From the NCBI GenBank assembly GCA_032718475.1, contig JAUCBJ010000075.1, forward strand, positions 1 to 64,000: a DNA stretch of 64,000 nucleotides, read 5' to 3'. Position 1 is the first letter of the stretch. Each line of letters opens with the position of its first letter. The notes below the pieces were generated by a model. That model worked only from the letters and a program-made list of their open reading frames with translations, made no database searches and was not told where the DNA came from. Source of the stretch: Nemertoderma westbladi. Its lineage: Eukaryota > Animalia > Xenacoelomorpha. Shown here in pieces: positions 5,177 to 47,183 of the stretch. A program made the position numbers and the translations under genes.

Positions 5177-5318
5177 TGATTTGATTTAGTTTAATTCACA
5201 TATAGTGACAATGACACATACACATAAACACAAAATACACATAATGTTTAATATATATAGTAAAATGCTTAGTAAAAACTGTTAGTTCAGACTAATAAAA
5301 GCACGAAAATTAAAATTG

Positions 5319-14215: not shown

Positions 14216-14234
14216 TCGATTGATTCGCCATCAC

Positions 14235-20234: not shown

Positions 20235-21102
20235 TTAATGTTTGTGCCCTTGATTGATATCTGTCCCTCGTTTATTGTTTGTGTCCCTCATTAATGTTTG
20301 TGTATCTCATTAATGTTTGTGTCCCTCATTAATGTTTGTGTCCCTCATTAATGTTTGTGTCCCTTATTAATGTTTGTGTACCGCATTAATGTTTGTGTCC
20401 CTCATTAATGTTTGTGTCCCTCATTACTGTTTGTGTACCTCATTGTGTCCTTCATTAATGTTTGTGTACCTCATTAATATTTATGTCCCTCATTAATGTT
20501 TATGTCCCTCATTAATGTTTGTGTCCCTCATTAATGTTTGTGTCCCTCCTTAATGTTTGTGTACCTCATTAATGTTTGTGTCCCTCATTAATGTTTATGT
20601 CCCTCATTAATATTTTTGTCCCTCATTAATGTTTGTGTACCTCATTAATATTTATGTCCCTCATTAATGTTTATGTCCCTCATTAATGTTTTTGTCCCTC
20701 ATTATGTATTTGTGTCCCTCATTAATGTTTGTGTACCTCATTAATGTTTGTGTCCCTCATTAATGTGTGTGTACCTCATTAATGTTTGTGCATGCCCCTT
20801 GAATCCATCTTTAATGTTTGTGTACCTCATTAATGTTTGCGTCCCTCATTAATATTTGTGTCCCTCATTAATGTTTGTGTCCCTCATTATTGTTTGTGTC
20901 CCTCATAAATGTGTGTGTACCTCATTAATGTTTGTGTCCCTCATTACTGTTTGTGTACCTCATTGTGTCCTTCATTAATGTTTGTGTACCTCATTAATAT
21001 TTATGTCCCTCATTAATGTTTATGTCCCTCATTAATGTTTGTGTCCCTCATTAATATTTGTGTCCCTCATTAATGTTTGTGTCCCACATTAATGTTTGTG
21101 TC
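20235..21102 (+). repeat. 19-bp minisatellite (TCCCTCATTAATGTTTGTG), interrupted by element A
   Basis: About 45 units. Degenerate units resume at 32245-32399, and inverted copies lie at 19558-19672. Confidence 0.95.
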
Positions 21103-22260
21103 TGTTCGCGCTTTTAGACCTTAGGCAGTTTAACCCGCCTAATTTAGTTGTCTTTTAGTTTGTAAATCGACTTTAGCCTACGACGAGTATTTGATACACT
21201 ACATTAGCCGAAGCCAGCCTATGCGCGATCATTCACCCGCTGGATATACCCGGGAGACTGGATTCGGGGGCTCTGACCTTATTGCGGTGTAGGCCTACTG
21301 TATTATTCGATTGATCGTTAATATATAATCTCTGACAATATTATTCACTTTCGGGAAATATTAACAGTTCCTTTAGGACGTGGCGCTCTAAATATATAAA
21401 CAGAGCTATGACTTACACTAAACACAACGGGATGGCTTATGATTCACGTATAAGGCGCATTCTTTAGGAGATGCTTTGTTATCTGTCCCAATCATGCACA
21501 CTATCGGTACCGCACAATACTGCACACTGATCTGCCGACCTTTACTAATTTTAGTCACATATAAAGAGAATAGTAATTGACCCATGTAGTGCCTATGAAA
21601 TAGCATTAGATTCACTCCAAAACCAATATCATATAAGTCGCAATTGCTATATGTAACCGGTCTCTTACCTTCAGTATATCAAGAAGATGGGGTTTTATAT
21701 TTATTTATCGATATTATCCAAATATAACGATATTCCATCAACAGATACAATTAATAACCGACAGTAAATAGCAGTAAAATAATGCGGTGTGTATATAATG
21801 CAGTTGACAGGCAGGATAACAGTTATACATTCCGGTAATCAAAGCCATTCTAATGTTTTGGCTAAAGTCTGAAACAGAATAATTCCATAGCCGATGTTCA
21901 TGGCATCAGGAAAACCAACACACTGAAACCTGTGGGCTGTTGTAGGCAGCTTTCAACACAAAGAGAAATAGCTCTCATTGGCAGAACTCCAGATTCTATA
22001 GGTTCCACGAACGTCTAAATGCCAAACCTCCCTAGCCTTTGCAGCCCATAGCCAACACAAGGCTAAATCGCTCTGATTGGTCGATCATTGTTCTGATTGG
22101 TTAATCGAACAGAACAAAGAGGCCATACGTACAGCAAATCGGCCAATCAGCCAGCAGAATGCATCACTCGAGCAAGGCAGTTTTAGAGTATTTGAGCGCA
22201 TTGAGGGAAAACTGGATTGCGGAGAAAAAGGGCCAGTTACATCCTGCAAAAGCTTTTACA
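21103..22260 (-). repeat. 3' LTR of element A
   Basis: Direct repeat of 31087-32244; about 6 substitutions seen by eye. Confidence 0.95.
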
Positions 22261-22268
22261 CCGCTCCC
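22261..22268 (-). promoter_or_regulatory. Polypurine tract of element A
   Basis: GGGAGCGG immediately before the LTR TGT on the minus strand; same sequence in B. Confidence 0.75.
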
Positions 22269-22666
22269 AGAAAATGGGATTTAATTCTATAAAATATAAA
22301 AAATCACAGTTTCTAAAATATAAAAATACTCTAAACAGTTAGTCTTTCTTGCGCGGACGGCGTTTATGCAGTTTTTTGAGGCTAGCGAGAGTCCTTTTCT
22401 CTTTGGGGCGAGCCACTTTACTAGGAGGGCTATAACTCCTGGGCGAAGGGTGCAATACAATTGCATCAGAAGGTTAGGGTTACGGTCGGTGTCTCGTCCA
22501 TTTCGATATGCTTCTCCTCGAGCTGATTTTCCTCCGCTTGTCATTGGATGTGTCCGTCCAAAAATTCTCGCGGAGAATAGGGTCGTCCAAGTTCGATAAC
22601 TTCTTAGAGATTCTGGATTTCCCGATCGAACTGAGATAAAGTTACTTTGTTTACCGCTTGGACCTG

Positions 22667-23700
22667 CTAGTGCAATTTACGTTTATCTGAACAAGCGTAG
22701 GTTCCTTTTCTGATCTTTTGTAGAATAGCGTCTAACGCGCTTGGCACAACGCTCTCCTCCACTCTGATGACAGGTTGTATCGGTGTTAAACCGGGACGAT
22801 GGCAAGGGTCAAACGGCGACATTAAATGTCCGCATCCCAATCCGGCTAGGTAGGATGGGCTAATATCTAGGAAGACCACAACCGGGGTGCAACCGACTAA
22901 CTGTTCAGGTAACACTAGATCTTTGAACAGTGAGTACAGTTCGGGAGGATCCGTGATACTATTAGGATCAAGAGTCTGAGGTCTAACTAGGGAATGAGGA
23001 GGTCTGACCGAGTATTCCGGAACTCTGATCATAGGTTTATTTAAGGATCGTTTGAATCGAGCGAGCGTAGGTGATACATCGAACAAGTTTCGCTCGAAAC
23101 TCCCGTAAATATAGCGAGTAAAACTGTGTTTAAAGCAACGTCTCCGCGGATGTTTATGTCTTTCCGTTTGTTGGTTGGGTCTTTGGCATTCATCGCAATA
23201 ATACCAAAGACGCACGTATTGTAGGGGAAACGCGGGTGATATTTATTCGGTGTTACAACGTTTCTCTCAAGAATTCCAAATATACGTTAGAGTTACTGCG
23301 TTTATCCGGTTCTTTAACGTCTTCTCTTTCGAGTCGATTTCGAATAGAATTTTCACATTCGATTTTCAGTTTATCGTTCCGACTCCGCTGGGTAGGATAC
23401 TCAAAACAGTACCATTTCCCTTTCGGTGTCGACATCGTCCGTATCGTGTAAATCGATAGAATGACTAGTAGTTAAGAAGTCCATATACATACCATTACGA
23501 TGCGTATAGCGAGCGGTGAATTTTCTATAGTCCAATTCACGCGTAAGTTGCTCCTGGGACATTGGCGGTTCGATATAACGACCATCGTCCTCCGTAGTAG
23601 TTGGACCAGCGTCGCCGCGTATCAAGCTATCAACAAACGCTTGTAAAGGTAGAGTATATCGCTCCCTGATACCAAGATTATCTTCTATCAACTCAGTCAT
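22667..23700 (-). pseudogene. Accessory ORF of element A (frameshifted and internally deleted)
   Basis: Pieces 23401-23700, 23253-23435 and 22667-23215 align to 45583-46777 of B. Confidence 0.8.
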
Positions 23701-25334
23701 ATCTGCTATATGAGTTTATCAATATTATAATGAGTTTATATTTAGGCTAGCGGGCGTCGCTGCCTACCCCTCTCGGCCCCCGGACAGCGCAAGATCCTCA
23801 GCGCTGGTGTACTTTCGCCGATGTGCCTATCGCCAACGTCGTAGCTGCACAACGACCACAACAACCAGCACGAGTCACTCCACCATCCGTCCCAAAGGCT
23901 TAGATATACTTCAGGTTCTTACTGGAGAGTTAGGGCTACTTTCACAATTGCGACTCGCTACTGTAAACACACTTTAGTAGTAACATTCACCCATAAACGC
24001 ACAAATTCCACACAACTGTCACAAACCGCACATATTCGGGCCATTTGTCCTTTAGTCAGTGCCTTCCAGAATGCCATGTTATTATTGGGTATCCTGGGAT
24101 ACTAGCAATGTGCTATTTTATTCCTTATGCTATTTAATGGGGCAAGCTTTCTATTGTTCTTTTAACTCACTTCTAATTCTAGCGTGGTTGTTGCCATGGT
24201 GACATTATGGAAAGCTAGCGGTAGAATTAGGGTAATTCTCATGCATACAGATCTGGGATGCTATTTAATAGTAATTCTTTAATTGTCAATATTCCTCTTT
24301 ATACATGATTTTATGAATTTTATCAGCTATTGACTATATATTGGAGATTCTCGCACACTAATATACTTAATAGGGTGAATCTCCGCTCCCATGATCTATT
24401 AATTTATGGAATTTTGGGAATGTTATAAATTGTATAACATGACAATTTATCAAATTCATTAAAATATGAATTTAAATTTATTCCCGTAAATTTTATTATT
24501 TAATATGAAATAGACACAATTTTATTCCAGAACATGTCTGGGGACTAGGATCCTTGATTCTAGGAAATTGGTCCTTTTAAGAATATCGGTAAGTGCTACG
24601 ATATCTTAATAGACTAGAATTTTAAAGGATCTAAAATTTGACAGATTTTGTAAATATTAATAATTAATATTTAGGATGGGCACCAGTTTATTCCAGAACT
24701 TGTCTGGGGACGTTAACCACTGATTCTAGAATTTTGTCTTTCAAGTATATCGGTGGGTGCCGCGATATCTTAATCGACTAGAATTACAGATGGTTAAAGG
24801 GTTTAACAGATTTATTTGCGTTGTACGCTACTGTTAAAGGGACATCACGCTACTATATGTATTATTTAATATACGGTATGAGAGCAATATCGCATGAAGC
24901 AATGTCAGTGAGAAGAGGCAAGTCGTTTCCAAGGTCTACCCAGAGCTTGGTTTAGCCGAGACACGAGGATCTGAATTTTGCATTCCTAATACTCTACTTA
25001 CCAATAATACTTGAATATAGTAGGAGCTTTATTGTACTTTGATAAGTACGGACATTTCATCTTACTGTAGTCACGTATTTATAATATGATACGGACAGTG
25101 AGGAAAGAGAAAAAGAATTATTTCTCGCCGTCGCACTAAATATAATATACAGGTAATTAAGTAATAAACGCTAATATATATTGCACTAATCTACTAAATA
25201 ATCGCTAAAATAACATTCTACTAAATAAAATTAAAGAAAACGATTATAATAAAATTACATAATAATACATACATAAGATAAAATAATAAAAATAAATATA
25301 AAATAATATAGTCACACACCCACTCCGTATGTTG

Positions 25335-28300
25335 TTACGTTATAGAGTCCCTAGATATTTGTTGGATTAGGGAGGTGGTCCTGGGAAGAGTATCTTGCCT
25401 TCCATAGTTTCCGGACAGTTTTCGGTCTCTTTCCAGTAAACATAAACGACCAGCTTGGCGATTGAGTGGTTGTGTTACTTTCTCCGCTCCCTTGGCCTGT
25501 CTAATCTTCGCCGGGGTAAGATGAGGAGGCCATTCATCTTCTTTACTTAGGAAGTCGGGTCCACCTAACCGGTCTGGAGTATCTGTCAGTTCTTGAGGAG
25601 TTGCTCCTCTGGAAGCGATGTCGGCTAGATTAATCGTCTCGGGGCAATGTCTCCATTGATCTACATTGGAGTTAATATCGTCATTATCTGAGGAGTATGG
25701 TGTTCCCTCAGTTGGGTCGTAGTCAACTTCACTGCTCTCCACTTCCCATTCACTTAATTGATATACTTGTTCTTTTGGTAATCTTTCCATAAGAGTTCTA
25801 CGGGAAGGGCCAGTAAAGTACCAACCTACTCTAGTTCTTCCCTCATAGGCTTGTAGTGGTTGCGGTTGAGCAGGCCGTTTCTCCAATGTCTCAAGCGCTT
25901 CATGCGCATTTTGGCCGATGAGTATTTGCACTCCAGGGTAATCTGTGTTGAATCTAGGAATATTAAGCTGCTGGGTGGAATCGTCTTCATCCCAGTTATA
26001 AGGTTCTACTTGGCTGGTAGCGAAGTTCTTTATCGCCACCATTTTTACTGACCTTATACTATGTTCTCCTAGTTCATCCTGGGGGGTGGACAACGCACCT
26101 ACATAATAATCCGCTATTACTGTAGATTTCCAAACCTGCATAATTCCTGACATGTTTAACTTAGTTCGGAACTTGGGTTGTCCAGCAAAGATGTCTTCGG
26201 CTAGTTCTTTGTCGATGAATGTTCCTGTGCTACCGGAGTCAAGGAGGGCATTCACTATATAACTCCTTTTAGGTCCGTGGACCCTTAATTGCACTACAGG
26301 AAATTCACGGATTCCTACATTGGAAGTTGGTGCTTTCCAAGATGGTTGTCGATCAGAAGTAGTTAGGGTGAGCTCGCTGTTTGTGTCTTTTTCATACGTA
26401 AGTGCTCGATACACTGCGGTATTTATCATGTAACAGGATTCATCTTCGTCGGAGAATTCGTCCGTATAGAATCCTTCCATCTCAGAACTTTGGTCAGTGT
26501 CGTTCACATCACTGAATTGGACATGTAGTTCAGACTCACTTACCTGACTCGGGCTGTTTTGATCGAATTCAGTGTGCAACAAGATATGATGTTTTGCGCC
26601 GCACTTTGCACACCTTGCGTCGGAGTAACAGGTTCGCCGTTGGTGTCCTCGTCTGAGGCAATTATAACACAACCACTTATCCCACATGACTTCACGTCTG
26701 TCCTTAAGTGATTTCCTCAGGAATTCATCACACGCACTTAAACGGTGGGGCCCGTCGCACAGCACACATTTTGGTTTGATGTTACTTACCTTACTTTGAG
26801 TAACGTTGTGCACACTCGTTCTTTCTTTGGGCTTTCTTACATGAATTCTCTTAGGAGACGTAGGAGGAGTTTTTCTTACCTGTTCTCTCCTGTCATTGGT
26901 TCGAGACTTGAATTTACTTACGTCCTTAGGCGCTGTGTTGTCATAGTAAGATCTTTCAGTGTCTTTCCCGCTGTCTTCCTCTTGAGAAGCCTGGCTTTCG
27001 CCATCGTCTGTATAACACACTGGTATTACCTTTCTCCTAGAAACGGGTTTCTCACTTACCTTATTTTCCGGTGTCTTCTCTCTGGACTGTTTTAGAAGCT
27101 GTAATTTTACCTCTCCATCTAAGAATGACATGAGATCAGCCATGGCAGGGTCTCTTCGTTGTTGTTCCATCATATATAACACTTTCTTGTCCCAGCGTGT
27201 ACCTACTCCACCCTTGGGCAAAGTAGATGCTAAGGCTCCTACAACCATAGAATTCTGGTATTCATGAGACTTACCTAACCAATCTAGTTGTCTACAGATC
27301 TCTTGAATCTCGTCGGAAAACTCTATAATCCCGCTGCTAAGAAACTTTCGGGGCGCCATTAATTTCGCATATAAATACCTAGCTATGTTAGTCCTATTAC
27401 CATACCTGATGTTTAGTGTATCCCAAACTTGTCTTAATCCATCTGGATGTCCAATAAACTTTAACGCCATTAACTTGGGAGATCCTTCCAAGCACTCGAT
27501 GAGGAATCTAAGCTTTTCTCCATTAGATAACACGGAGTTCTGTATGTTATCTTTGTAATATTCATTAAAAGGTAACCATTTCATCTCATCTCCATTGAAC
27601 TTGACGATCTCTCCCATCTTTACCGCTTGACGGGCTTCGGTTCTAGCCATTTGACGCGTAAAACTTTCTTGGGCCATAGTATTATTTAATATCGAGTTAT
27701 CGGTATATAAATTTCTCGGATTATTATCAAGTCTATATGGAATATCACTGTCAACAGGTTTATAATTACCCTTAATAGGGTTTACTATAGGAGTTTCCAC
27801 TTCGCTAGCAGTATAGATGCGTGTAGGCTCCACACCTTGCGCATGAAATACTTCAGACCTAACAGGTTGACACATTGTTACAGGGGGTGGTGGTATACCC
27901 TTTTGTGTATTTACTAATTTATCGCGTTCTAACGCGATACTTTGCTGCACTTCTTGCAACGCTAACCTACCCTCTCTTACTGCTCCCTTTAACTGCTGAA
28001 CAGTCCCTTCCAACTCCCGGACCTGCTGGGAGGAACATTTACAATGTTCCCTCAGCTGCCCGAGCAGGAGACCCATCTCCCGTCGTCCCTCAGCTACCCA
28101 CTTGACCGCCGAAGAGGGAGTCGCCAACGTAGTAGCGGGCAAGCGAGAGACGACGGGCGATAAATTCTTGATATCTCGCTCGGCGTCCAGGATGGGTTCG
28201 GACTCGGGAACAGTCCTACTGGGCACAGGTAGTTTCGTGCTGTGCAAAGGGAATTTAGAGGTAGGTTCTGGGAGTACAGGTGTCTCTATCACCGAAGGGG

Positions 28301-28808
28301 TGGCTTCGAGAACAGGCCTAATTATTTCAGGCTCATCTACTATAGTAGGGAGTCTTTCTACTGTAATAATTTGGTCTGTGGGTTCTGTACCACAGCGAGT
28401 TCTGTAATACACTGGATAGTCTACACTATCCAGTTGCATTCTCACCTCAGGAGGTAACGTCCGCTTGAGCATCCGTCTACGTCCGCTTGAACGAGATTTA
28501 TTACCTCTACCTTCGGGATCTCTTATATCACCTTCATCGGAGGAGGCAAATCCCTGTCTTCTGGTTTGTTTCTTCAAGTAATCTTGTTTCGCCTGAAGGT
28601 TTTCCAGCTCTAGTTGGGTAGTCGCTTCAGACGCCTTCCGTTCTGCTTCTGCCACTGCCTCTGCCGCTTTTCTTTCCGCTTCTGCCGCTGCTACTTTTCT
28701 TTCCGCTTCTTTTCTGTCTTCTATCCTTTTAAGACACTGTCCAAGTCGAAGACTCATTCTAACACCTTTCAAAAGACTATCTGACAGTGCCCATTTTGTG
28801 TCAGACAT
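25335..28808 (-). CDS. BEL Gag (DUF1759-like, 3 Zn knuckles) plus aspartic protease, with RNase H and integrase remnants fused in frame
   Basis: KFNGDEMKWLPF; CVLCDGPH..C, CYNC..GH..C, CAKC..HH..LH; LLDSGS; then directly DQWRHCP..NLADIASRG and LNRQAGRLCLLE. RT and the integrase core are absent. Confidence 0.92.
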   Translation of the reverse strand: MSDTKWALSDSLLKGVRMSLRLGQCLKRIEDRKEAERKVAAAEAERKAAEAVAEAERKASEATTQLELENLQAKQDYLKKQTRRQGFASSDEGDIRDPEGRGNKSRSSGRRRMLKRTLPPEVRMQLDSVDYPVYYRTRCGTEPTDQIITVERLPTIVDEPEIIRPVLEATPSVIETPVLPEPTSKFPLHSTKLPVPSRTVPESEPILDAERDIKNLSPVVSRLPATTLATPSSAVKWVAEGRREMGLLLGQLREHCKCSSQQVRELEGTVQQLKGAVREGRLALQEVQQSIALERDKLVNTQKGIPPPPVTMCQPVRSEVFHAQGVEPTRIYTASEVETPIVNPIKGNYKPVDSDIPYRLDNNPRNLYTDNSILNNTMAQESFTRQMARTEARQAVKMGEIVKFNGDEMKWLPFNEYYKDNIQNSVLSNGEKLRFLIECLEGSPKLMALKFIGHPDGLRQVWDTLNIRYGNRTNIARYLYAKLMAPRKFLSSGIIEFSDEIQEICRQLDWLGKSHEYQNSMVVGALASTLPKGGVGTRWDKKVLYMMEQQRRDPAMADLMSFLDGEVKLQLLKQSREKTPENKVSEKPVSRRKVIPVCYTDDGESQASQEEDSGKDTERSYYDNTAPKDVSKFKSRTNDRREQVRKTPPTSPKRIHVRKPKERTSVHNVTQSKVSNIKPKCVLCDGPHRLSACDEFLRKSLKDRREVMWDKWLCYNCLRRGHQRRTCYSDARCAKCGAKHHILLHTEFDQNSPSQVSESELHVQFSDVNDTDQSSEMEGFYTDEFSDEDESCYMINTAVYRALTYEKDTNSELTLTTSDRQPSWKAPTSNVGIREFPVVQLRVHGPKRSYIVNALLDSGSTGTFIDKELAEDIFAGQPKFRTKLNMSGIMQVWKSTVIADYYVGALSTPQDELGEHSIRSVKMVAIKNFATSQVEPYNWDEDDSTQQLNIPRFNTDYPGVQILIGQNAHEALETLEKRPAQPQPLQAYEGRTRVGWYFTGPSRRTLMERLPKEQVYQLSEWEVESSEVDYDPTEGTPYSSDNDDINSNVDQWRHCPETINLADIASRGATPQELTDTPDRLGGPDFLSKEDEWPPHLTPAKIRQAKGAEKVTQPLNRQAGRLCLLERDRKLSGNYGRQDTLPRTTSLIQQISRDSIT

Positions 28809-31074
28809 ATTAGATTTGTACAGTTGAATGCCTACTGCTATATTACAGTTAAAGCAAGTCTAGTAATTCAGTATCAACTGTTAGCCTAGTAATTAATTAC
28901 CGATATCGTTACTCTATGTAACGTGATATATATACAATATATTAGAATACCGGTATACACTTACAATATATATAAGTATTATTACAGACTAGGTTTGTCA
29001 CAGAATACCGGTATGTAATTTCAGCACAAATATATATAAATATATAATAGGCCTATCGTGAATACCGGTATACAGCTTACACTTATAGTATATATAAGTA
29101 TAATTATGGACTAGAATTAATTACAGAATACCGGTATAATTTCAGCCTAAATTTATAGAAATAAATATAATAAGTCTATTGTAGATACCGGTATATCAAT
29201 TATTTTAGAATAATTAAATTTCTGAATTTTAGGGGTTACTTGGTTACTTTAACTTACTTTATTACCGTTATTTAAGCAGTACTCCAACTGATATTGAGAC
29301 CTAATTGTTGTATGATAGGCCTACTATTTTATAAATCGGTTTGAGTTGATTTATAATATATATACCCATATAATGGGTTTTGTCAATATTTGAAATAAAT
29401 GTTATTATTTCTGGGAAGGAGTCACTACACAGAAGCTGTGCGCTCTCAGTGAAGTGCTACTTGTTGGACACTAAAACAAATAATTCTAATTTACCTAAGT
29501 TACTTAATACTACAAATTACATACAATTCTGGGTGAGATTATAATCTCTAAATAAACACAAAAATTACACGTACGAATTTTTAGGGTAATTTCACAAGAA
29601 GTCTACAAACCAGCCTAACAAAGGGTTAGATTATCTGGTTATTACAACGGACAGAGTACTACGGTATTTGAAAATAACTAAGCAGTAGTAAATATACTGC
29701 GTTGTCCAGATAGGAAAAATACCACCGTCTGACGACTTATAGCCGTATCGCTATAAGTACTACGTTATGTATCACGGAGTGTTCCTACCTAGAAGTTAAA
29801 TACCGCGGTCTACCAGAACCAACGTGCCTATTAACCACTTTACAACACAAATATACTGCCTACACACTAATTACCTTCGGGAAGCACTGTACACTAAACC
29901 CTAAATTAGGTACAAGTACTTATACAACAAATAATCAGTAGTTAAAATACTTGAACAGCTAAAAGAACCACGGTATCTGCTGGAGTGACCGGGGCACAAA
30001 ATCACCAGTCTTTACCTACGCCAAGCAGCCCTGATGTAGTACCGGGGTTAATTTAACTATAACGGTATATATAACAAGCACAATTTCTGTAGGAATAAAC
30101 TTGGGGGTATGAATGTTGCGAATAATCGCATAAACTCTGAATAATAAATATTACGCTACCCGTACAAACTACCGGTACTCAAACAAAATACAAACCAAAC
30201 GCTGGCAGACTACTATCAAGCCTAAATAAACTACAGTATGTGCAGACTCCGAAATGGTTAGTTAGTACGCGTTCTAACCGAGTAGTACGACTTATTCTTT
30301 CGGGGGGGGGGGGGGGGGGGGGATTTACCTTACAGTACTGGATGCCCCTACTTTCCTAACCGGCACTTTATCGGACATACACTCCACACACACTACAATC
30401 TCTTCAGACCTAACAACAGCCAGACAACAATCTAACCTATAAATTATCTGAATAAGAAATATTACGGTACCTGTACAGACTACACAAACAAAATACAGAC
30501 TAAACGCTGGCAGACTACTATCAAGCCTAAATAAATTACAGTACATGCAGACTCCGAAATGGTTAGTTAGTATGCGTTCTAACCTAGTAGTACGACTTAT
30601 TCTTTCGGGGGGGGATTTACCTTACAGTACTGGATGACCCTACTTTCCTAACCGGCACTTTATCGGACATACACTCTACATGCACTGCAATCCGTTCAGA
30701 CCTATCAACAGTCAGACAACAGTCCAGCCTACAAATTATCTATACGATCTGAGCAGGCTTACACATCTTCTGCTCAATATTAGCCTACAGATAAATAAAA
30801 CTGACAGAAATAAGTAAACCATACAAAGGAATAAGGGGTGATCAATCCCTAATCCCCTAACAGCCTACAATATACAATATATCACAATCGAAATAATACT
30901 AGTACCTTTACTGCTGTAAGTACCGGTTCCGGTGGTTAGGTAGTTAGGCCTACAGGTTACTGGTCGACCGGTACTTCAGCTTTATTGCTTACTGCAATAA
31001 AGAAGCAATAACTGTTACTGTTCTTACCAGAACAATAGTAAACTGTATTTATTGCCTACACTGCAATCAGAGTT

Positions 31075-31086
31075 CATAACTGTTAT
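31075..31086 (-). promoter_or_regulatory. Non-tRNA primer-binding-site position of A (ATAACAGTTATG)
   Basis: Abuts the 5' LTR, has no TGG, and is complementary to the LTR site at 31800-31811. Confidence 0.75.
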
Positions 31087-32244
31087 TGTTCGCGCTTTTA
31101 GACCTTAGGCAGTTTAACCCGCCTAATTTAGTTGTCTTTTAGTTTGTAAATCGACTTTAGCCTACGACGAGTATTTGATACACTACATTAGCCGAAGCCA
31201 GCCTATGCGCGATCATTCACCCGCTGGATATACCCGGGAGACTGGATTTGGGGGCTCTGACCTTATTGCGGTGTAGGCCTACTGTATTATTCGATTGATC
31301 GTTAATATATAATCTCTGACAATATTATTCACTTTCGGGAAATATTAACAGTTCCTTTAGGACGTGGCGCTCTAAATATATAAACAGAGCTATGACTTAC
31401 ACTAAACACAACGGGATGGCTTATGATTCACGTATAAGGCGCATTCTTTAGGAGATGCTTTGTTATCTGTCCCAATCATGCACACTACCGGTACCGCACA
31501 ATACTGCACACTGATCTGCCGACCTTTACTAATTTTAGTCACATATAAAGAGAATAGTAATTGACCCATGTAGTGCCTATGAAATAGCATTAGATTCACT
31601 CCAAAACCAATATCATATAAGTCGCAATTGCTATATGTAACCGGTCTCTTACCTTCAGTATATCAAGAAGATGGGGTTTTATAATTATTTATCGATATTA
31701 TCCAAATATAACGATATTCCATCAACAGATACAATTAATAACCGACAGTAAATAGCAGTAAAATAATGCGGTGTGTATATAATGCAGTTGACAGGCAGGA
31801 TAACAGTTATACGTTCCGGTAATCAAAGCCGTTCTAATGTTTTGGCTAAAGTCTGAAACAGAATAATTCCATAGCCGATGTTCATGGCATCAGGAAAACC
31901 AACACACTGAAACCTGTGGGCTGTTGTAGGCAGCTTTCAACACAAAGAGAAATAGCTCTCATTGGCAGAACTCCAGATTCTATAGGTTCCACGAACGTCT
32001 AAATGCCAAACCTCCCTAGCCTTTGCAGCCCATAGCCAACACAAGGCTAAATCGCTCTGATTGGTCGATCATTGTTCTGATTGGTTAATCGAACAGAACA
32101 AAGAGGCCATACGTACAGCAAATCGGCCAATCAGCCAGCAGAATGCATCACTCGAGCAAGGCAGTTTTAGAGTATTTGAGCGCATTGAGGGAAAACTGGA
32201 TTGCGGAGAAAAAGGGCCAGTTACATCCCGCAAAAGCTTTTACA
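31087..32244 (-). repeat. 5' LTR of element A
   Basis: Direct repeat of 21103-22260; reads TGTAAAAG...CGCGAACA on the minus strand. Confidence 0.95.
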
Positions 32245-32502
32245 GTGTCCTATATCAATGTTTATGTCCCACATTAATGTTTGTGTCCTACATCAATGTT
32301 TATGTCTCAGATTAATGTTTGTCCCCCTGATTAATGTTTGTCCCACATTAATGTTTGTGGCGCTGATAAATATCTGTCCCTCATTTAATGTTTGTGTCCA
32401 AGTTGCTATTAGTTACTCTAGGTTGCCGGACGTTTTGGACAATTTGGTCAGCAACTAGCAACTTAATTTGAGTAACATTAACTTTTAGTCCCCGTTATAT
32501 GA

Positions 32503-33680
32503 TGTAAAGGCTTTTGCGTAATTAGCCGGTTATTTTCCCGGTAAAGTACTCTGTAGTTGGTTTAACAGGCATAAAAAGCCGTGTCCTTACTGTACTGGTG
32601 TTTTAGAGGACATAAAAGTCATTTCTTCTGTATGTGTACTTTAACGGACATAATTCGCAATTTTATGACGCAATGCGCCAAATCCTCTGTAAACAGTGTA
32701 GCTACCATGGCGACGGCTAACAGCTGATGCTGTACACGTGGAGCTTGTTCTTTGTTCTCTGTTCCTTCTTTGTTCGGTCGACCAATCAGAGCGTTTTTTG
32801 CCTCTGTGTTAGAGATTGTATATAGAAACTCGTGGAGTTGAGTCAGTATGTGATTTGTCCACAGCCTAGAACATCGGCTTTGGAACCTCCGTGTTTCAGT
32901 CTTTAGCCCAACATTAGTAGGCTTAATTATAGAACGTATATCCGTTATCTCACTCACATACATATTATCATACCATACCTAACCCAATCGATCATATCAA
33001 TTTATACCTTAACATTTTACTGCTTTTACTGTCGGTTATTCATTATATTTGTTGATGGAATATTATATTTGGAATACTGATGAATAATCAGACACCCCAA
33101 TCTTCTTGATATACTAAAGGTTAGAGAGACCGGTTACATATAACAATTGCAACTTACATTAAGTGGTTTGAAGTGAATCTAATGCTATTTTATAGGCCCT
33201 ACACGTATTGTCTGTTGTTCTCCTTATATGTGACTAAAATTAGTGAAGGTCGGCAGATTGGTGTGCAGCATTGTGCAGTATTGTGTATGATCGTGATTGA
33301 TAACGAAGCATCTCCTAAAGAATGCGCCATATACGTGAATCTATAGCCATCCCGTTGTGTCTAGTTTAAGTCATAACTCTGTTTATATACTTAAAGCGCC
33401 ACGTCCTAAAGGAACTGTTAATATTTCCCGAAAGTGAATAATATTTGTCAGAGATTATATATATTACGATCAGTTGAATAATACAGTAGGCCTACCCCGC
33501 AATACGGTTAGGCTTCCGAATCCAGTCTCCCAGGTATATCCAGCGGGTGAATGATCGCGCATAGACTGGTTTCGGCTAATGTAGTGTATCAAATACTTGT
33601 CATAGGCTAAAGACTATCTATCATCTCAAAGACATCCCAATTTGGCAGGTTAAACTGCTAAAGGTCTGAAAGCGCGAACA
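32503..33680 (+). repeat. 5' LTR of element B (1178 bp)
   Basis: TGTAAAGG...CGCGAACA; direct repeat of 47184-48274. Confidence 0.95.
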
Positions 33681-33692
33681 ATAACGGATATA
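33681..33692 (+). promoter_or_regulatory. Non-tRNA primer-binding-site position of B (ATAACGGATATA)
   Basis: Abuts the 5' LTR and is the exact reverse complement of TATATCCGTTAT at 32937-32948. Confidence 0.8.
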
Positions 33693-33961
33693 GCTTCTGT
33701 ATTGCAGTAGGCAATAAAGCTGAAGTACCGGTTAACCGGTACCTAGTAGGCCTGACTACCTAACCACCCGGACCGGTACTTACAGCAGTACAGGTACAGC
33801 AGTATTATTCGATTGTGAAATTGTATACCGGTAGGCTGTTTAAGAGATTAGGGACTGTACACCCCTTGTTTCTTTTGGAGCTTACTTATTTCTGTCAGTT
33901 TTATTTATTTGTAGGCCAGTATTGAGCAGAAGGCGTGTAAGCCTGCTCAGATTGTACAGAC

Positions 33962-34520
33962 AATTTGTAGGCTAGACTGTTGTCTGACTGTTGTTAAGTC
34001 TGAAGGGACTGTAGTGTGTGTAGAGCATATGTCCGAAAAAGTACTAGTTAGGAAAGTAGGGGCTGCCAGTGCTGTGAGGTGAACCCCCTCGAAAGAATAA
34101 GTCGTACTACTCGGTTAGAACGCATACTAACTAACCATTTCTGAGTCTGCATTATATTGTAGTTTATTTAGGCTTGATAGTAGTCTGCCAGCGTTTGGTC
34201 TGTACCTTGTTTGTGTAGTCTGTACGGGTAGCGTAATATTTCTTACTTAGATAATTTGTAGGCTGGATTTTGTCTGGCTGTTGTTAGGTCTTGAGAGATT
34301 TCGGTGTGTGTAGAGTGTATGTCCGATAAAGTGCCAGTTGGGAACGTAGGGGCTTCCAGAGCTGTGAGGTAAACCCCCTCGAAAGAATAAGTCGTACTAC
34401 TCGGTTAGAACGCATACTAACTAACCATTTCGGAGTCTGCATATATCGTAGTTTGTTTAGGCTTGATAGTAGTCTGTCAGTATTTGGTCTGCATTTTGTT
34501 TGAGTAGTCTGTATGCGTAA
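33962..34520 (+). repeat. ~291-bp tandem duplication in the 5' leader (also in A at ~30190-30740)
   Basis: AATTTGTAGGCT...GAAAGAATAAGTCGTACTACTCGGTTAGAACGCATACTAACTAACC occurs twice, with units starting at 33962 and 34253. Confidence 0.85.
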
Positions 34521-35870
34521 TATTTATTATTCAGAGTTTATGCGATTATTCGCAACATTCATTCCCCAAGTTTATTCCTACAGTAATTGTGCTTGTTATA
34601 TATACCGTTACAGTTAAACTAACCCCGGTACTACATCAGGGCTGCTTGGCGTAGGTAAAGACTGGAGATTTTATGCTTTGGTCACTCCGGCAGATACCGT
34701 GGTTCTTTTAGCTGTACAAGTATTTCTAACTGCTAGTTATTTGTTGTATAAGTACTTGTACCTAATTTAGGGTTTAGTGTACAGTGCTTTCCGAAAGTAA
34801 TTAGTGTGTAGCCAGTATATTTGTGTTGTAAAGTGGTTAATAGGCACATTGGTTCTGGTAGACCGCGGTAATTAACTTCTAGGTAGGAACACTCCGTGAT
34901 ACATAACGTAGTACTTATAGCGATACGGCTATAAGTCGTCAGACAGTGGTATTTTTCTATCTGGACAACGCAGTATATTTACTACTACTTATTATTTTCA
35001 AATACCGTAGTAACCTGTCCGTTGTAATAACCAGATATTCTAACCCTTTGTTAGGCTGGTTAGTAGACTTCTTGTAAAATTACCCTAAAAATTCGTACTT
35101 GCAATTTTTGTGTTTATTTAGAGATTGTAATCTCACCCCGAATTGTACGTAATTTGTAGTATTAAGTAACTTAGGTAAATTAGAATTATTTGTTTTAGTG
35201 TCCAACAAGTAGCACTCCACTGAGAGCGCACAGCTTCTGTGTAGTGACTCCCCCCAGAAATAATAACATTTATTTCAAATATTGACAAAAACCCATTATA
35301 ACGGGTATATATATTATAAATCAACTCAAACGATTTATAAATAGTAGGCCTGCCATACATCAATTGTCTCAATATCAGTTGGACTACTGCTTAAATAACG
35401 GTAATCAAATAAAGCAAAGTAACCAAGTAACCCCTAAAATTTCAGAAATTCAATTATTCCAAAATAATTGACATGCCGGTATTCACGATAGGCTTATTAT
35501 ATTTATTTCTATAAATTTAGGCTGAAATCATACCGGTATTCTGTAATTAATTCTAGTTAATAATTATACTTATATATACTATAGGTGCAAGCTGCATACC
35601 GGTATTCACGATAGGCCTATTATATATTTATATATACTTGTGCTGAAATTACATACCGGTATTCTGTGACAAATCTAGTCTGTAATAATACATAAGTAAT
35701 AATAATAAATAAAAATAACAATAATAAAGTCTGTTCTAATATATTATATATATATCACGCTACACTGAGTAGCAGTATCGGTAATTAATTACTAGGCTAA
35801 CCGTGATACTGAATTACTAGACTTGCTTTAACTGTAATATAGCAGTAGGCATTCAACTGTACAAACAAAC

Positions 35871-38800
35871 ATGTCTGACACAAAGCCAAACCTGTCAGAC
35901 AGTCTCCTAGATACAACCATCTGTGACCCAGACAGGAGTGTGGAACGTGAGAGGCCGAAGTTCAATTCACCTCCTACTGTAAGAAAGATCATCCCTCCAG
36001 TAGTAATATCAGAACCTAGGCTGGTACAACACCGTAGGTCTGTCATAGGCACTAGAGCTCAGGTCAAGCGGGACCAAGAAGCAGCGGAACAGCAACCACC
36101 CGCGAGCCGAGAACTTATTTCTCAGCGGCCCGACAGCTCCAGTAGTGCAGATACTGTAGAGCTGACACCCGAGCACGGAGCAAAGATGACAGATGCGGTT
36201 TATTCGGATCCCCTTCTCATCCTTCCTGCAGCCGTACTCACTAGGTTATTGATTGCGGTGGAAGAACACCAGATCGATTGGGCGAGAAATAAGCGATCGA
36301 CTAAAGATAGTTATGCGGGATACACAAGGGAAGAACTGAAGTCTATTGTCAAGTCGCAATGGAACTTCCCCGGACCCGGACTACCTTTCGACTTATCAGA
36401 AGCTGCCTGGGAAGACATACACAGGATGGGAGTAATAAAAGAAACCATCGATCCAGCTGTGTGGAAGAGGTCAGCAGCAGGATACGTACAGGGATTCTTC
36501 AGCTCTATGGAGCGATTAAAAGAACAACTGTTTCAACAACCCCAAGGACCTCAAGAGCAGGGACAGCTGCTTTATCAAGTTAGAGAAAGAATTCTACGAA
36601 TCAGGCTAATCTTATCGGCCTTTGAGGAGGCTTCTAAAAGAAGACAAGACACGTCGTTGCAAGTTGCCGTAAAGACTTGGTTTCAACGGGTGAGTCTCCA
36701 GGTTCAAGGAACGGCTCAGTGGAAAGCTCAGCTGGAGGAGCGCTCAACCCATGGAGAATCAACAGACGCTACTTTTTCCCAAGTGGAAAGTGAAGCGACG
36801 GCAGAGAAACCGCATAAGAGGGATGCCATTGACATCTATCTGTCAGACTATCAACGTTTTTTAGGTGATGAAGAGTTGAGGAGAAGGCTAGATGGACTTA
36901 GCCCTAATAGTGAAGGAGCCCAGCGTGTGTTGGACGCCATCGATGTGGATAGGTTAGCTGCGAACCAAGCTAAATTCAATGAAAGCATCCCCATCGCTAA
37001 GGTTCAAGAAGAACAAGTAAAGAAAAAACGTATAGAAGACAGAAAGACAGTGGCAGTGGCAGCAGCAGTGGCAGCGGCAGAAGCGGAAAGAAAGGCGGTA
37101 GAGGTGGAAAGAAAAGCGGCAGCGGCAGAGGCAGAAGCGGAAAGAAAAGCAGCCGAAGTGGAAAGAAAAGCGGCAGTGGCAGTGGCAGAAGCAGAACGGA
37201 GGGCATCTGAAGAGACAACACAACTAGAGTTGGAAAATCTTCAAGAGAGGCAAGACAACTTCAATAAACAGTTAACAGCTAGTAATATGCAGATGATGAG
37301 TCGATCTATTCCCAAAAGACAAGGTTATACATCATCTGAGGAAGGCGATACCACCGTTACTGAAGGCGGAGGAAATAGATCTCGTCTAAGCAGACGTAGA
37401 AGAATATCCCACCGCCAGAAATTGCCAGATTTGCCCCCAGCTGTTAGAAAGCAACTAAATAACACAAACTTAGGTAGTACAGAACCCACAGACCAAATAA
37501 TTGAAATAGAAAGACTCCCTACTATAGTAGATGAGCCTGAAATAATTAGGCCTGTTCCCGAAGCCACCCCTTCAGTGATAGAGACACCTGTACTCCCTGA
37601 ACCTACCTCTAAATTCCCTCTGCACAGCACTAAGCTATCTGTGCCACACAGAACCACCCTTGGAAATGCTCATGTCCTGGACTCCGAGCGAAATATTAAT
37701 GATTTGTCGCCCATTGTCCCTCGTCGGCCCGCTACAACGTTGGCGGCTCCCGCTTCGGCGGTCGAGTGGGTGGATGAGAGACGACGGGGGATGGATCTCC
37801 TGCTCGGGCAGATGCAGGAGACTGTTCAGCAATTCAAGGGCACAGTAAGGGAAAGTAGGTTAGAGTTGCAAGAAGTGCAGCAAAGTATCGCGTTAGAACG
37901 TGATAAATTAGCAAATACACAAAGAGGTATACCACCACCCCCTGTAACAATGTGTCAACCTGTTAGGTCTGAAGTATCTCATGCGCAAGGTGTGGAGCCT
38001 ACACGCATATATACTGCTAGCGAAGTAGAAACTCCTATAGTGAACCCTATTAAGGGTAATTATAGACCTGTTGATAATGATATTCCCTATAGACCTGATC
38101 ATAATCCGAGAAATTTATATACCGATAACTCGATATTAAATAACACGATGGCCCAAGAAAGTTTTACGCGTCAAATGGCTAGAACCGAAGCACGTCAAGC
38201 GGTAAAGGTGGGAGAGATAGTCAAGTTCAATGGAGATGAGATGAAATGGTTACCTTTTAATGAATATTATAAAGATAACATACAGAACTATGTACTATCT
38301 AATGGAGAGAAACTTAGATTCCTCATCGAGTGCTTGGAAGGATCTCCCAAGTTAATGGCGTTAAAGTTTATTGGACATCCAGACGGATTAAGACAAGTTT
38401 GGGATACACTAAACATCAGGTATGGTAATAGGAATAACATAGCTAAATATTTGTATGCAAAATTAGTAGCGCCCCGAAAGTTCATTAGCAGCGGGATAAT
38501 AGAGTTTTCCGATGAGATCTGTAGACAATTAGATTGGTTAGGTAAGTCTCATGAATATCAGAGTTCTATGGTCATTGGAGCCGTGGCTTCTACTTTACCG
38601 AAGGGTGGAGTAGGTACACGCTGGGATAAGAAAGTGTTATATATGATGGAACAACAACGACGAGACCCTACCATGGCTGATCTCATGTCATTCTTAGATG
38701 GAGAAGAGAAATTACAGCTCCTAAAACAGTCCAGAGAGAAGACACCGGAAAACAAGGTAAGTGAGAAACCCGTTTCTAGGAGAAAGGTAACACCAGTGTG

Positions 38801-41800
38801 TTATACAGACGACGGCGAAAGCCAGACTTCTCAAGGAGAAGATAGCGGGAAAGACACTGAAAGATCTTATTATGTCAATAAAACGCCTAAAGAACAGGTA
38901 AGTAAATTCAAGTCTCGAAACAATGACAGGAGAGAACAGGTAAGAAAAACTCCTCCTACGTCTCATAAGAGAATTCAGGTGAGAAAGCCCGAAGAAAGAA
39001 CGAATGTGCACAATGTTATTCAAAATAAGGTAAGTAACATCAAACCAAAATGTGCGCTATGTGACGGGACCCACCGTTTGAATATGTATGATGAATTCCT
39101 GAAGAAATCATTAACGGAGAGGCGGGAAGTCATGTGGGATAAGCGGTTGTGTTATAATTGCCTCAGACAAGGACACCAACGGCGAACCTGTTACTCCGAC
39201 ACAAGGTGTGCAAAGTGCGGTGCGAAACATCATATCTTGTTGCACACTGAATTCGAACGAAACAGCCCGAGTCAGGTAAGTGATTCCGAACTACATGTCC
39301 AATTCAGTGATGTGAACGACACTGACCAAAGTTCTGAGATGGAAGGATTCTATACTGATGAATTCTCCGACGAAAATGAATCCTGTTACATGATAAATAC
39401 TGCAGTGTATCGAGCACTTACGTATGAAAAAGACACGGACAGCGACCTCACCCTAACTACTTCTGATCGACAACCATCTTGGAAAGCGCCACCTTCCAAT
39501 GTAGGAATCCGAGAATTTCCTGTAGTACAGGTAAGGGTCCACGGACCTAAAAGGAGTTATGTAGTAAACGCCCTCCTTGACTCCGGTAGTACAGGAACAT
39601 TCATCGACAAAGAACTAGCCGAAGACATCTTTGCTGGACAACCCAAGTTCCGAACTAAGCTAAACATGTCAGGAATTATGCAGATTTGGAAATCTACAGA
39701 AATAGCGGATTATTATGTAGGTGCGTTGTCCACCCCCCAGGATGAACTAGGAGAACATAGTATAAGGTCAGTAAAAATGGTGGCGATAAAGAACTTCGCT
39801 ACCACCCAAGTGGAACCTTATAACTGGGATGAGGACGATTTCACCCAGCAGCTGGAAATACCTAGATTCAACACCGATTACCCTGGAGTGCAAATACTCA
39901 TCGGTCAAAACGCGCATGAAGCGCTCAAGACATTGGAGAAACGGCCCGCTCAACCGCAACCACTACAAGCTTATGCGGGAAGAACTAGAGTGGGTTGGTA
40001 CTTTACTGGCCCTTCCCGTAGAACTCTCATGGAAAGATTACCGAAAGACCAGGTATGTCAAGTGAGAGAATGGGAAGTCGAGGGCAGTGAGTTAGATGAT
40101 CCAACTGAGGGAACACCATACTCCTCAGATAATGACGATGTCCACCAACGTTTCGATGAGGAGAATACCATCGATCTCCTTAAGGAAAACGAGACTTGGC
40201 AAAACCAAGTGAACTTATGTCAGCTCCTTCTTCCATCAGAGCGAGACGACTATAACGACGAGCTTAATGACGTCATTGAACGTTATAATGCCAAGACTCG
40301 GGATGAACACGCCGTACGATTCTTTACTCAAGAGGCTGTAGAGCCCAATTCCTACGATAAGGCCCTATCGGTAGAGGAAGAAAGAGCCAAGCAGATCCAA
40401 GAGACAACTACACGTTTTCTTAAAGATCAAGGTAGATATGAGATCGGTCTACCTTTCCGAAAGCGAGAACCAAAGTTCGTAAACAACAGACCCTTGGCGG
40501 AGAAAAGAATTGCTCAACTACATCGACGCCTTACGGCAAATTCTTCAGCTAAAGAAATGTATCAAACGCAGTTGAAGAAATTTATTAGCAAGGGATATGC
40601 GGAGCTAGTACCGAAAGAAACACCTATAACTGAGAGAACGTATTATTTAACTCACCATTACGTTCCCAAACCCAGTAAACCCCATGAGGTACGAGTGGTG
40701 TTTGACGGCTCCGCCCTCTATATGGGCCAATCCCTTAATTCTGAATTGTTACCCGGACCCAACTTACTCCAATCCTTGTTGGGAATACTCTTAAGATTAA
40801 GACAATATTCAATTGCTTTCGCCTCAGATATAGAAGGCATGTTCTTACAAGTCAAGGCGCTGGATAGGGATCGAGACAGCCTACGATTTCTGTGGTGGCC
40901 TGAAGGAGACCTCAACCAGAAACCGGTGGAGTACTGGATGACCATCCAGGCTTTTGGGATAATCTCAAGCCCTTCAAACGCCTGTTCAGTGGTGCGCACC
41001 ACTGCGGATGACAACCGAGAAGCCTTCTCTAAAGAGGTGATTGACAACATCAAGCGGGATATATACATGGACAATAATCTAAAGTCCCTTCCATCAGTCG
41101 AAGAAGCCATTGACGTCGCTAAAGGAACGGTAGAATGCTTAAAAAGAGGTGGATTTCGATTAACTAAATTCACCAGCAACTCCCGTGAGTTTCTGGAGTC
41201 GATCCCGGTAGAAGATCGAGGAGCGATAGACCTGGATCTAATAAAAGATGATCTCCCAGAAACTATGACCCTTGGTTTGAAATGGGACACCGAAAGAGAT
41301 ATCCTGTTTTTCCAACTAAAACAGCGAGATAATCCAGTTCGGACTAAACGGATTTGTTTAAGTATCCTGAGCACTTATTTTGATCCATTGGGATTTATTA
41401 GCCCAGTTATATTGATTGCTCGGAGTTTGGTACAACAAATGTGGCTTGAAAACCACTCATGGGACGATCCACTTAAGGGAGAATTATTAAAGAAGTGGAT
41501 GAAATGGGAAGATTCTCTACCAGCCATCGAGAACTTTATAATTTCCCATTCATATTTTGGTCATGTTCTCCCTACGTATTCCTATCAACTCCATGTGTTT
41601 GGAGACGCCAGCGATATGGGAATAGGTATAGTAGCCTACCTAAGGGTGGAAACTCCGGACGGAATCAAAGTCGCCTTGGTTACCTCTAAGGCACTGATAA
41701 ACAACAAGTTGAAAGTTCCTCTAGCGGAGTTAAAGGCGGCTCTATACGCTACAGCCATCGGCCGGAATGTAACAGAACAGATCGACTATCCACTGGAGAA

Positions 41801-43949
41801 AACTGTCTATTGGACCGACGCTTTACTCGTGTTGGAGTATATAACCAATGAAGTCTGTCAGTTCAGCGTCTTCGTTACCAACAGAGTAGCCATTATACTC
41901 AGTCGCACAATGATGGATCAATGGAGACATTGCCCCGGAACGATTAATCCAGCAGACATCGCCTCCAGGGGAGCAACTCCACAAGAACTGGTAGACACTC
42001 CAGACTGGTTAGGTGGACCCGACTTCCTCTACAAAGAAGAAGAAGAATGGCCTCCTCATCTTACTACAGCAGAGATTAGACAGGCCAAGGGAGCGGAGAA
42101 AGTCAAACCTAAAACTCGGGCGAGTAAATCGAAGTTATTCAAACCCATGGTAGATCTGTCTGTACTACATATTTCCGGAGACGACGCTTTGGATCAGAAA
42201 CCCACAGCCACAAATAAACTTGTTGTGGAAATCCGTGAGAAGGATTGGAAATCTGGAATACCAGATGTCTCGCAAGGACTCTCACCTCTTCTGCAGAGAG
42301 CGATATATCACTACAGTTCCTGGAATCGGCTCTGTAAGGCCGTTACATATTTAAAGAGATGTTTTCACCATCACTACTCCAGGATGAAGGCCAAAGGTGA
42401 TACCGCTCCAATAACATCAGTGCAGGTCCATGTTATTAAAGATCTTCCCAAATATAAGATACCCGACAGGTTTCTGAAGGAGAAGATCAGTTATCAGGAG
42501 CATGAAGAAACCAACAAGCAGATGCTGAGACTCCTGCAATGCTATGAGGATTCCGATAAGTATTTCCTGTTGTTGAGAAATCCACAGATGCGCTTAAGGG
42601 ATCGTTTCTCTAGCACAATGATAGATGGGTTGATACGTGTTGGAGGAAGATTAACGAATGCTCCATTATCCTTTGACACTAAGTTTCCCATACTCATTAG
42701 AAATCTTGAAATACAAGTCAAGATGATTGTAGACGTTCACAGCAAACTTTATCATGCTGGTAGGGAACGAGTTCTTAGCGAAATTCGAACTCGCTATTAT
42801 TTTTATAAACCCCGTAGAGCTCTGAACCAAGTTCTTATGAACTGCATACCCTGTAGGAAAGCATTCAGTAGGCCTTTAACACAGCGAGAGGCAGAATTAC
42901 CTAGGGAACGAGTAAGCTTCTATGAACCACCCTTTACTAATACCGGTGTGGATTTATTTGGCCCTATTGAAGTATATCGTGCTAGGACTATAGTCAAGAG
43001 ATGGTGTGTCATCTTTGTTTGTATGACTTGTAGAGCTATCCATCTCGATATGGTGAACGATTTATCTACCAACAGCTTTCTATGAAGCTTACGACGACAG
43101 ATCGCTCGCTTTGGCACTAGTAACACGATGAGATCTGATAAGGGAACAAACTTCATTGGTGCCAACAATGAAATCAAAGCTTACGTCAAAGATTGGAACC
43201 AAAGACAGGTGGACGATCAGCTACGAGTAACAGCGTCTAGCTGGACCTTCAACGCCGCCGACGCCCCTTGGTGGGGAGGAAGTTGGGAGAGATTAATAAG
43301 AAGTGTGAAGACAGCATTTCACTTTATAGTGCCTTGCCGCGCGTATCTCACCGACGAACTTTTGCGGACGTTAATGGAGGAAATCGCCGCCTATCTCAAC
43401 GAGAGACCGCTTATGCCAGTCTCATCGAGTCCCAATTCCCTGGAAGCGCTAACACCCGCGCATTTCCTACTAAAGAAACCTGTAGCCATGCTCCCACAAT
43501 CGGAAATCACAGACGGAGACGAATACTGCCGGCAAACTTGGCAACTCATGCAGTTGTTATCCCGTCGTTTCGCTGACCATTTCGAAAAACATTATCTGCC
43601 CACGCTACAACTTCGAACTAAGTGGTTTGCGCAGCAAGAAAACGTCAGCGCTGGAGACATGGTTCTTATTGTGGATGTAGATCTTCCACGTAAGCGGTGG
43701 CAGACAGGTCGTATCATCGAGACTCACATCTTGGATGATGGTTTGGTGCGATCGGTAGAACTCGTCGTCATGCGACGTAACTTCAAGAAACCGGGAATTG
43801 TCTTCGAGACACAGCAGCTCAATCGCCCAGTTGGTCGCTTATGTTTACTGGAAAGAGACAGAGAACTCTCCGGAAACTATGGGAGGCAAGATACTCTTCC
43901 CACGACCACCTCCCTAATCCAACAAACATCTAGGGACTCCCCAACTTAA
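35871..43949 (+). pseudogene. BEL/Pao Gag-Pol polyprotein (~2690 aa) with one in-frame TGA at 43083-43085
   Basis: ORFs 35871-43085 and 43128-43949 share a frame. Motifs: DSG protease; RT RVVFDGS, SDIEGMFLQV, YMDN (expected YMDD); RNase H FGDAS, AELKAA, WTDA, NPADIASRG; integrase H..H..CIPC, GVDLFGP, SDKGTNF, GGSWERLI. Confidence 0.95.
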
Positions 43950-45555: not shown

Positions 45556-45582
45556 TATAATATTGATAAACTCATAGCAAAT

Positions 45583-47175: not shown

Positions 47176-47183
47176 GGGAGCGG
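47176..47183 (+). promoter_or_regulatory. Polypurine tract of element B
   Basis: GGGAGCGG directly before the 3' LTR. Confidence 0.75.

Follow-up and report, generated by a model that had tools for sequence, protein, structure and literature searches.

Two related LTR retrotransposons, here called A and B, lie head to head with 258 nt between them in Nemertoderma westbladi contig JAUCBJ010000075.1, as revealed by self-comparison of the 64,000 nt stretch analysed (the window). Both are BEL/Pao elements. In each, the bases directly after the 5' LTR are not a match to a tRNA end and are complementary to a site within the element's own LTR. This complementarity is confirmed as a real, non-random feature. 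It is probable that reverse transcription of A and B is self-primed by a piece of their own 5' RNA, by the same logic as in Tf1 but outside of the Tf1 group. The features are as follows.

32244-21103, minus strand: element A, 11.1 kb, with a 5 bp target duplication, GACAC
31087-32244, minus strand: 5' LTR of A, 1158 nt, TGT...ACA, 99.5% identical to the 3' LTR
31800-31811, minus strand: LTR site of A complementary to its PBS, 11 Watson-Crick pairs and one G:U; putative 3' end of the self-primer
31075-31086, minus strand: non-tRNA PBS of A, flush with the LTR end
22261-31086, minus strand: internal region of A, with leader and gag-protease part; large deletions, non-autonomous
21103-22260, minus strand: 3' LTR of A, with the PBS-complementary site repeated at 21827-21816
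32503-48274, plus strand: element B, 15.8 kb, with a 5 bp target duplication, TATGA
32503-33680, plus strand: 5' LTR of B, 1178 nt, TGT...ACA
32843-32847, plus strand: TCAGT initiator-like motif from a motif scan, candidate transcription start; homologue in A at 31910-31906
32937-32948, plus strand: LTR site of B complementary to its PBS, 12 Watson-Crick pairs; putative 3' end of the self-primer
33681-33692, plus strand: non-tRNA PBS of B, flush with the LTR end
35838-43949, plus strand: gag-pol frame of B, with zinc knuckles, protease, RT, RNase H and integrase
47176-47183, plus strand: short polypurine tract of B preceding the 3' LTR; the copy in A is identical
47184-48274, plus strand: 3' LTR of B, 1091 nt, with the site at 47520-47531 and a C-to-T change at 47526

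The BEL/Pao identity proposed for both elements in the earlier note is supported by Pfam domains and by motif order. The gag-pol frame of B matches DUF1759, Peptidase_A17, Integrase_H2C2 and DUF5641, and Pfam and motif searches place its domains in the BEL/Pao order of gag zinc knuckles, protease, RT, RNase H and integrase. Homologues of the frame are BEL/Pao polyproteins with 31-41% identity, the named ones coming from marine invertebrates and fish, and PF05380 is carried by all 120 of the B homologues among the matches listed. The LTR features of the Belpaoviridae are also present, namely a length of 0.2-1.2 kb, TG...CA ends, a target duplication and a polypurine tract. The LTRs of both elements are close to the upper size limit of this family.

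A and B are about 85-92% identical to each other. The frame of B is interrupted by a single stop (43083-43085, in the integrase region); judged by sequence motifs, its RT motif appears degenerate and its RNase H motifs are present. Element A has lost RT, integrase and most of RNase H: in a tblastn comparison, residues 397-1441, 2026-2089 and 2658-2703 of the B polyprotein are covered and nothing else, and DUF1759 is the sole Pfam match in the internal region. Both are therefore recent, defective copies. The LTR pair of B is 98.3% identical outside of a 98-nt deletion and an 11-nt insertion. An intron was considered as the cause of this 98-nt difference and rejected: GT-AG ends cannot be placed on it and it has a direct repeat of 4 nt, which make it a deletion. 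Public contigs, in which depth is not equivalent to copy number, show the A/B family to be abundant and diverse.

Other features of the two elements and of the window can be noted here. The leader of approximately 2.2 kb (33681-35837) contains a tandem duplication of approximately 290 nt (33958-34535), in A and B alike. Between pol and the 3' LTR, B has an extra frame of 348 codons with one stop (45550-46596, plus strand); its homologue in A (22667-23242, minus strand) is about 91% identical and the frame has no Pfam match. Element A is inserted within a minisatellite of approximately 19 nt (20225-21102 and 32245-32399), and B is inserted head to head with A, 258 nt from its 5' end. A non-LTR-type element at 5319-12563 (minus strand) has an Ulp1-like (Peptidase_C48) frame followed by a frame of 1059 codons, which begins like an endonuclease and has an RT (RVT_1). 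A C-terminal fragment at 4383-5195 (minus strand), with no Pfam match at threshold, resembles a second non-LTR RT frame. Repeats include a 62-nt satellite with more than 70 copies (58100-62500), a degenerate GC-rich tandem array with three frames open (12260-14218), a triplication of approximately 315 nt with 98% identity (17478-18497) and a tandem array of approximately 145 nt (1131-2096).

The pairing between PBS and LTR stands as it was described in the earlier note, in which all letters and coordinates are correct. TGG is absent from the first 30 nt after the 5' LTR in both A and B. The 12-nt PBS of B is the exact reverse complement of 32937-32948, and in A there are 11 Watson-Crick pairs between 31086-31076 and 31810-31800, plus one G:U. 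The two sites are at homologous positions in the LTR alignment (offset 434-435). Anywhere in either LTR, the second-longest Watson-Crick run with the element's own PBS is 5 nt. When the LTRs were shuffled with dinucleotides preserved, the exact site arose in 24 of 20,000 cases for the 11-mer of A and in 13 of 20,000 for the 12-mer of B. A single one of the 13,492 internal 12-mers of B has a reverse complement in the LTR, and it is that at position 1; for A this is the case for 5 of the 8,816 internal 11-mers, position 1 included. Both sites are at the right edge of a conserved block with 78% identity over 85 nt.

Positions 6 and 8 of the pairing differ between A and B in both partners, as expected of compensatory changes, but the 3' LTR of B now has a T at position 6 (47526), as in A, making this a G:U pair. 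CpG transitions account for most LTR substitutions (5 of 6 between the LTRs of B and 4 of 6 between those of A), and for this reason the T is most likely decay after insertion. If the partners are exchanged, pairing A site with B PBS and B site with A PBS, 5 nt of pairing are left at the site. By hand count, the chance that both site changes land on the three changed PBS positions is 3/66, before base identity is considered. Since A and B are related, there has been one event and two compensatory changes, rather than two events. Covariation within the window family is a comparison of two elements, A and B. Among the matches listed in public contigs, a minority of the total, there are no variants of the A/B site or PBS, and with that coverage those contigs are uninformative on covariation. 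The seven further pairs that had been noted in B are present but not significant on their own, 176 of 2,000 shuffles being as low; the same test for A gave 1,574 of 2,000.

A splice-junction primer within A or B was also considered and rejected. The best match in A is 8 nt, and the 11-nt junction of B needs an AG that is absent from A. A C/A-rich hypervariable segment, in which A and B differ in length, begins directly 3' of the site (32950-33020), and contig cover falls sharply there.

The earlier note suggested that complementarity be sought across related BEL families, and this check was passed by 9 of 11 distant relatives, in each case specifically with the element's own LTR. The relatives were drawn from 80 BEL/Pao loci in metagenome contigs, the best 80 of 541. 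Eleven were kept by eye, in which the 5' LTR's end is fixed by its divergence from the 3' copy; loci with an LTR start only, or with a repeat that does not end like an LTR, were left out. Pairing was scored both as contiguous matches and as matches spanning GT..AG. In the nine positive relatives, two of which are one family, a non-tRNA PBS pairs over 10-15 nt with the LTR. One of these pairings (L006) is contiguous and eight are across a GT..AG junction; the introns are 67-186 nt long, and in most cases the donor is GTAAG and the acceptor rich in pyrimidines. L080 is positive only after the offset range was extended from 0-3 to 0-5. The two relatives that have TGG reach an own-LTR pairing score of 4. 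Pairs of PBS and LTR from different families reach 10 nt in 2 of 154 cases and 11 nt in none of the 154.

When 55 5' flanks were scanned blind, 15 had matches, versus 3 on the reverse strand, and 13 versus 0 had matches of the splice type. Two contiguous matches and one splice match were discarded from the scan as misplaced or unverified, that of L007 being inside the reading frame, that of L009 unverified and that of L080 off the LTR end. Together, the 11 relatives and the blind scan yield 13 families, in which the PBS letters are all different. In 12 of these metagenome-contig families (L001, L004, L005, L012/L013, L014/L017/L024, L019, L033, L039, L041, L043/L044, L064 and L080) the PBS is paired with the junction of two LTR exons that are separated by a GT-AG intron. 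That the pairing strand of most relatives is formed by splicing was not foreseen in the earlier note. Two exon-1 letters differ between the sister families L001 and L033, and the PBS changes match. As a separate observation, the PBS of locus L050 (406-420), TGGTAGCAGAGC, is identical to the tRNA-Met PBS that a passage of PMC5445492 reports in GalEa copia elements of metazoans.

The contiguous relative, L006, is different at its two ends. Its upstream LTR (1-345) has a splice acceptor at the junction and its downstream LTR (6694-7103) has the uninterrupted site. This LTR pair is 88% identical and perhaps merged from two copies in assembly; it possibly represents the halfway state that would be expected if an intron were lost through splicing of the 3' copy. 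No intron-bearing sister of the window family was found, the LTR-end motif has no matches in metagenome contigs, plasmid sequences gave no match, and three scans of viral contigs contained no BEL relatives. A rapidly built RT-RNase H tree with 99 rows, none of them a reference element of the named BEL/Pao clades, has self-pairing families throughout, with TGG elements among them. B is on a long branch (1.65) with unsure placement, and its relatives are at most 44% identical. This supports a shared principle and does not prove common descent of the trait.

If A and B are self-primed, the transcript would have its start within the 5' LTR, either at the site or upstream of it. The LTR site would anneal to the PBS, which is approximately 715-730 nt downstream; the two could be on one RNA molecule or on two that are packaged together. 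The RNase H of the element would then cut next to the site on its 3' side (after position 32948 in B and 31800 in A), freeing a 3'-OH from which RT would copy U5 and the rest of R. Plus-strand synthesis would later copy the primer into a new PBS, as it does in the standard reverse-transcription scheme (outlined in part of PMC7175516), and PBS and site would be expected to change together as a consequence. The primer might be approximately 11 nt, if the RNA starts at the site as in Tf1, or approximately 100 nt, if it starts at the upstream TCAGT. In most relatives the pairing strand would exist only once the 5' LTR intron has been spliced out, and the window family would have its uninterrupted site likely through the loss of such an LTR intron. 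Because the 3' end of a primer defines the right end of the LTR, a complement that is flush with this end, replaces the tRNA site and tracks the LTR is best read as a self-primer. Element A has no RT, and its LTRs are nonetheless 99.5% identical with the pairing kept, as would be expected of a signal acting in cis.

Where transcription begins can be approached through motifs. A motif scan of B places a TATA-like motif 24 nt and a CCAAT about 60 nt upstream of TCAGT. Of 14 families, 11 have a pyrimidine-purine step at paired base 1 or 2 (p 0.018, the background being 0.24 per position), and in L001 there is a TATA box at -31. In four families TATA-like motifs are 119-135 nt upstream of the site, and in three, A and B included, TCAGT is 86-100 nt upstream, both of these windows having been picked after the data were seen. 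In addition, a second pairing, an upstream helix between the 14 nt upstream of the site and leader sequence past the PBS, was compared across 14 families, two of them sisters. It is better when both strands come from one family than when they come from different ones (27 of 20,000 permutations), although A and B are not outstanding in this test (13/28 and 10/26). Together, the upstream motifs and the upstream helix suggest RNA that reaches further upstream, and a primer exceeding that of Tf1 in length, in some of the families. A stretch of 54-55 nt (32846-32899, plus strand; 31907-31853, minus strand), starting with GT(A/G)TGT, ending with TTTCAG and kept in both LTRs, is found 37-41 nt upstream of the site. 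It could be a short intron or a trans-splice acceptor.

The claim of probable self-priming in the earlier note has held as regards the BEL/Pao identity, the lack of a tRNA-end PBS and the covarying pairing, and priming by this route remains an inference. It has fared less well in folding, where the helix forms in one of four full 5' constructs. In partition-function folding of full 5' transcripts, its probability is 0.8-0.99 in the construct of B that starts at 32938, and in the other three it is 0.0. Forcing the helix costs 0-8.5 kcal/mol, and 3.7-8.5 kcal/mol in four of five constructs. Although long-range predictions of this kind are weak, the result speaks against an easy fold in cis. In two-strand folds the central helix is mostly formed in A and fully formed in B, and the flanking helices differ.

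It could be argued that the pairing is structural, a long-range switch in dimerisation, packaging or translation, and that another RNA or another site primes. There are further conserved hairpins in the leader and U5, the near-palindromic 11-mer of A could pair between RNAs, and the enrichment of the upstream helix across the 14 families indicates structure in excess of a bare primer duplex. A switch of this kind does not account for the position of the match, which always starts 0-4 nt after the LTR end in place of the TGG site, nor for its presence in the nine relatives without TGG and absence from the two that have it. No other PBS is evident, and the PBS of B is not palindromic, making a purely structural role unlikely. 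Even less probable is priming at the A/B PBS by a fragment of a host tRNA or by some other small RNA of the host, with the LTR match being secondary. Half-tRNA priming is known in Ty1/copia lineages, according to a section of PMC6317226; ARAGORN identified no tRNA genes in the window or in eight loci, and Rfam gave no match above threshold. A host RNA leaves unexplained why 13 families have differing PBS, each tracking its own LTR and often across a junction, and also the two paired positions at which A is unlike B.

There is a similarly small probability that the primer is the element's own RNA from another source, the 3' end of the transcript or short solo-LTR transcripts, and that the 5' leader is not cut as in Tf1. 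Both LTRs contain the site, the family is highly abundant, the canonical AATAAA is absent from either LTR and the cis fold is weak in three of four constructs, all of which would be compatible with such a source. A cut would still be needed for a free 3'-OH at the site, however, and the relatives retain the 3' LTR intron, so that their 3' copy is unspliced and the primer would have to come from the spliced 5' copy or another molecule. Chance, or the relic of a template switch that once copied a stretch of LTR, is very improbable. The common ancestry of A and B, and a site that is conserved no more than the block around it, would suit a relic, but the site has a chance of about 1 in 1,000 per LTR, to be multiplied by approximately 0.05 or less for the placement of the site changes (3/66), and the pattern recurs in the relatives. 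Self-priming from the 5' RNA is preferred.

A wider proposal, that a large and widespread branch of animal BEL/Pao is self-primed by an internal piece of the leader, is offered tentatively. This piece would usually be assembled by splicing, so that splicing would gate replication in most families; the window family, intron-less and with a putative fold spanning upwards of 700 nt, would have lost this gate together with its intron. Tests of self-priming are confined to Tf1/Tf2; for the Ty3/gypsy group to which they belong, and for a single copia lineage of plants, it has been inferred. The ICTV describes BEL/Pao as tRNA-primed. A self-primed branch, if true, would be a further independent switch. 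It would also account for BEL/Pao elements that have no recognisable PBS and are missed or mis-bounded by annotation tools, and it predicts that the cut and the strong-stop end fall at a single base. If the relatives do assemble their primer by splicing, this would tie host splicing to the start of reverse transcription. At title and abstract level, in a search with most of the subscription literature and Repbase outside its scope, there is no report of self-priming in connection with BEL/Pao or with LTR introns, nor is there one in passages of PMC5445492, PMC3601003 and PMC3286476. The words PBS, tRNA and self-priming are absent from the main text of two BEL/Pao surveys (PMC3118150, PMC6238403).

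A and B are like the Belpaoviridae in domain content and order, in LTR size and in their single gag-pol frame. The ICTV profile gives this family an 18-nt PBS for tRNA-Arg or tRNA-Gly and a length of 4.2-10 kb (PMC8742986), and part of a description of Achilles from the olive fly reports a tRNA-Tyr PBS (PMC4580426). In contrast, A and B have no tRNA-end PBS and are 11.1 and 15.8 kb. The tRNA PBS is only descriptive in the profile, the Belpaoviridae being delimited by pol, and the lack of a tRNA-end PBS thus makes A and B a variant within BEL/Pao.

The lack of a tRNA PBS is shared with Tf1/Tf2 of Schizosaccharomyces pombe, Tj1, Tosmo1-3 and Tf1/sushi elements generally. According to the earlier note, the Tf1 PBS may also start with ATAAC. 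As in Tf1/sushi, where sections of PMC7175516, PMC4600332 and bioRxiv 2022.12.06.519325 describe about 11 nt after the 5' LTR that pair with the same LTR, both A and B have the Tf1-type complementarity to the LTR of at least 10-11 bases in this position. In Tf1 the PBS is paired with the first 11 bases, and base 11 is followed by the RNase H cut (PMC7175516, in part). The text consulted of bioRxiv 2022.12.06.519325 adds that Tf1 self-priming requires a three-duplex structure, the 'pretzel'. Unlike Tf1/sushi, which are Ty3/gypsy chromoviruses, A and B have a BEL/Pao polyprotein with no chromodomain match in Pfam. Their loop of about 715-730 nt is also unlike Tf1, an internal piece, in place of the first 11 nt, may be their primer, and their BEL/Pao relatives would need splicing to form the primer.

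Self-priming is reported for Tf1/sushi in parts of PMC6317226, PMC4600332 and PMC5341516, and is predicted, in a portion of PMC6317226, for the Tcn1 clade and the plant Ty1/copia TAR lineage (Houba, Osr-1). TAR and Tcn1 are recognised there by the same feature, at least 10 bases after the 5' LTR that are complementary to the LTR, although they belong to other superfamilies and other hosts than A and B. The switch to self-priming has therefore already been inferred more than once, which makes a third case less surprising. In fungal GalEa copia elements a Conserved Hairpin Site replaces the PBS (PMC5445492, in part). Both GalEa and the elements described here have a conserved, partly palindromic sequence in place of a tRNA PBS, but the partner in A and B is in the LTR, and that of GalEa is downstream in the leader, the same part of PMC5445492 stating that no LTR complement was found.
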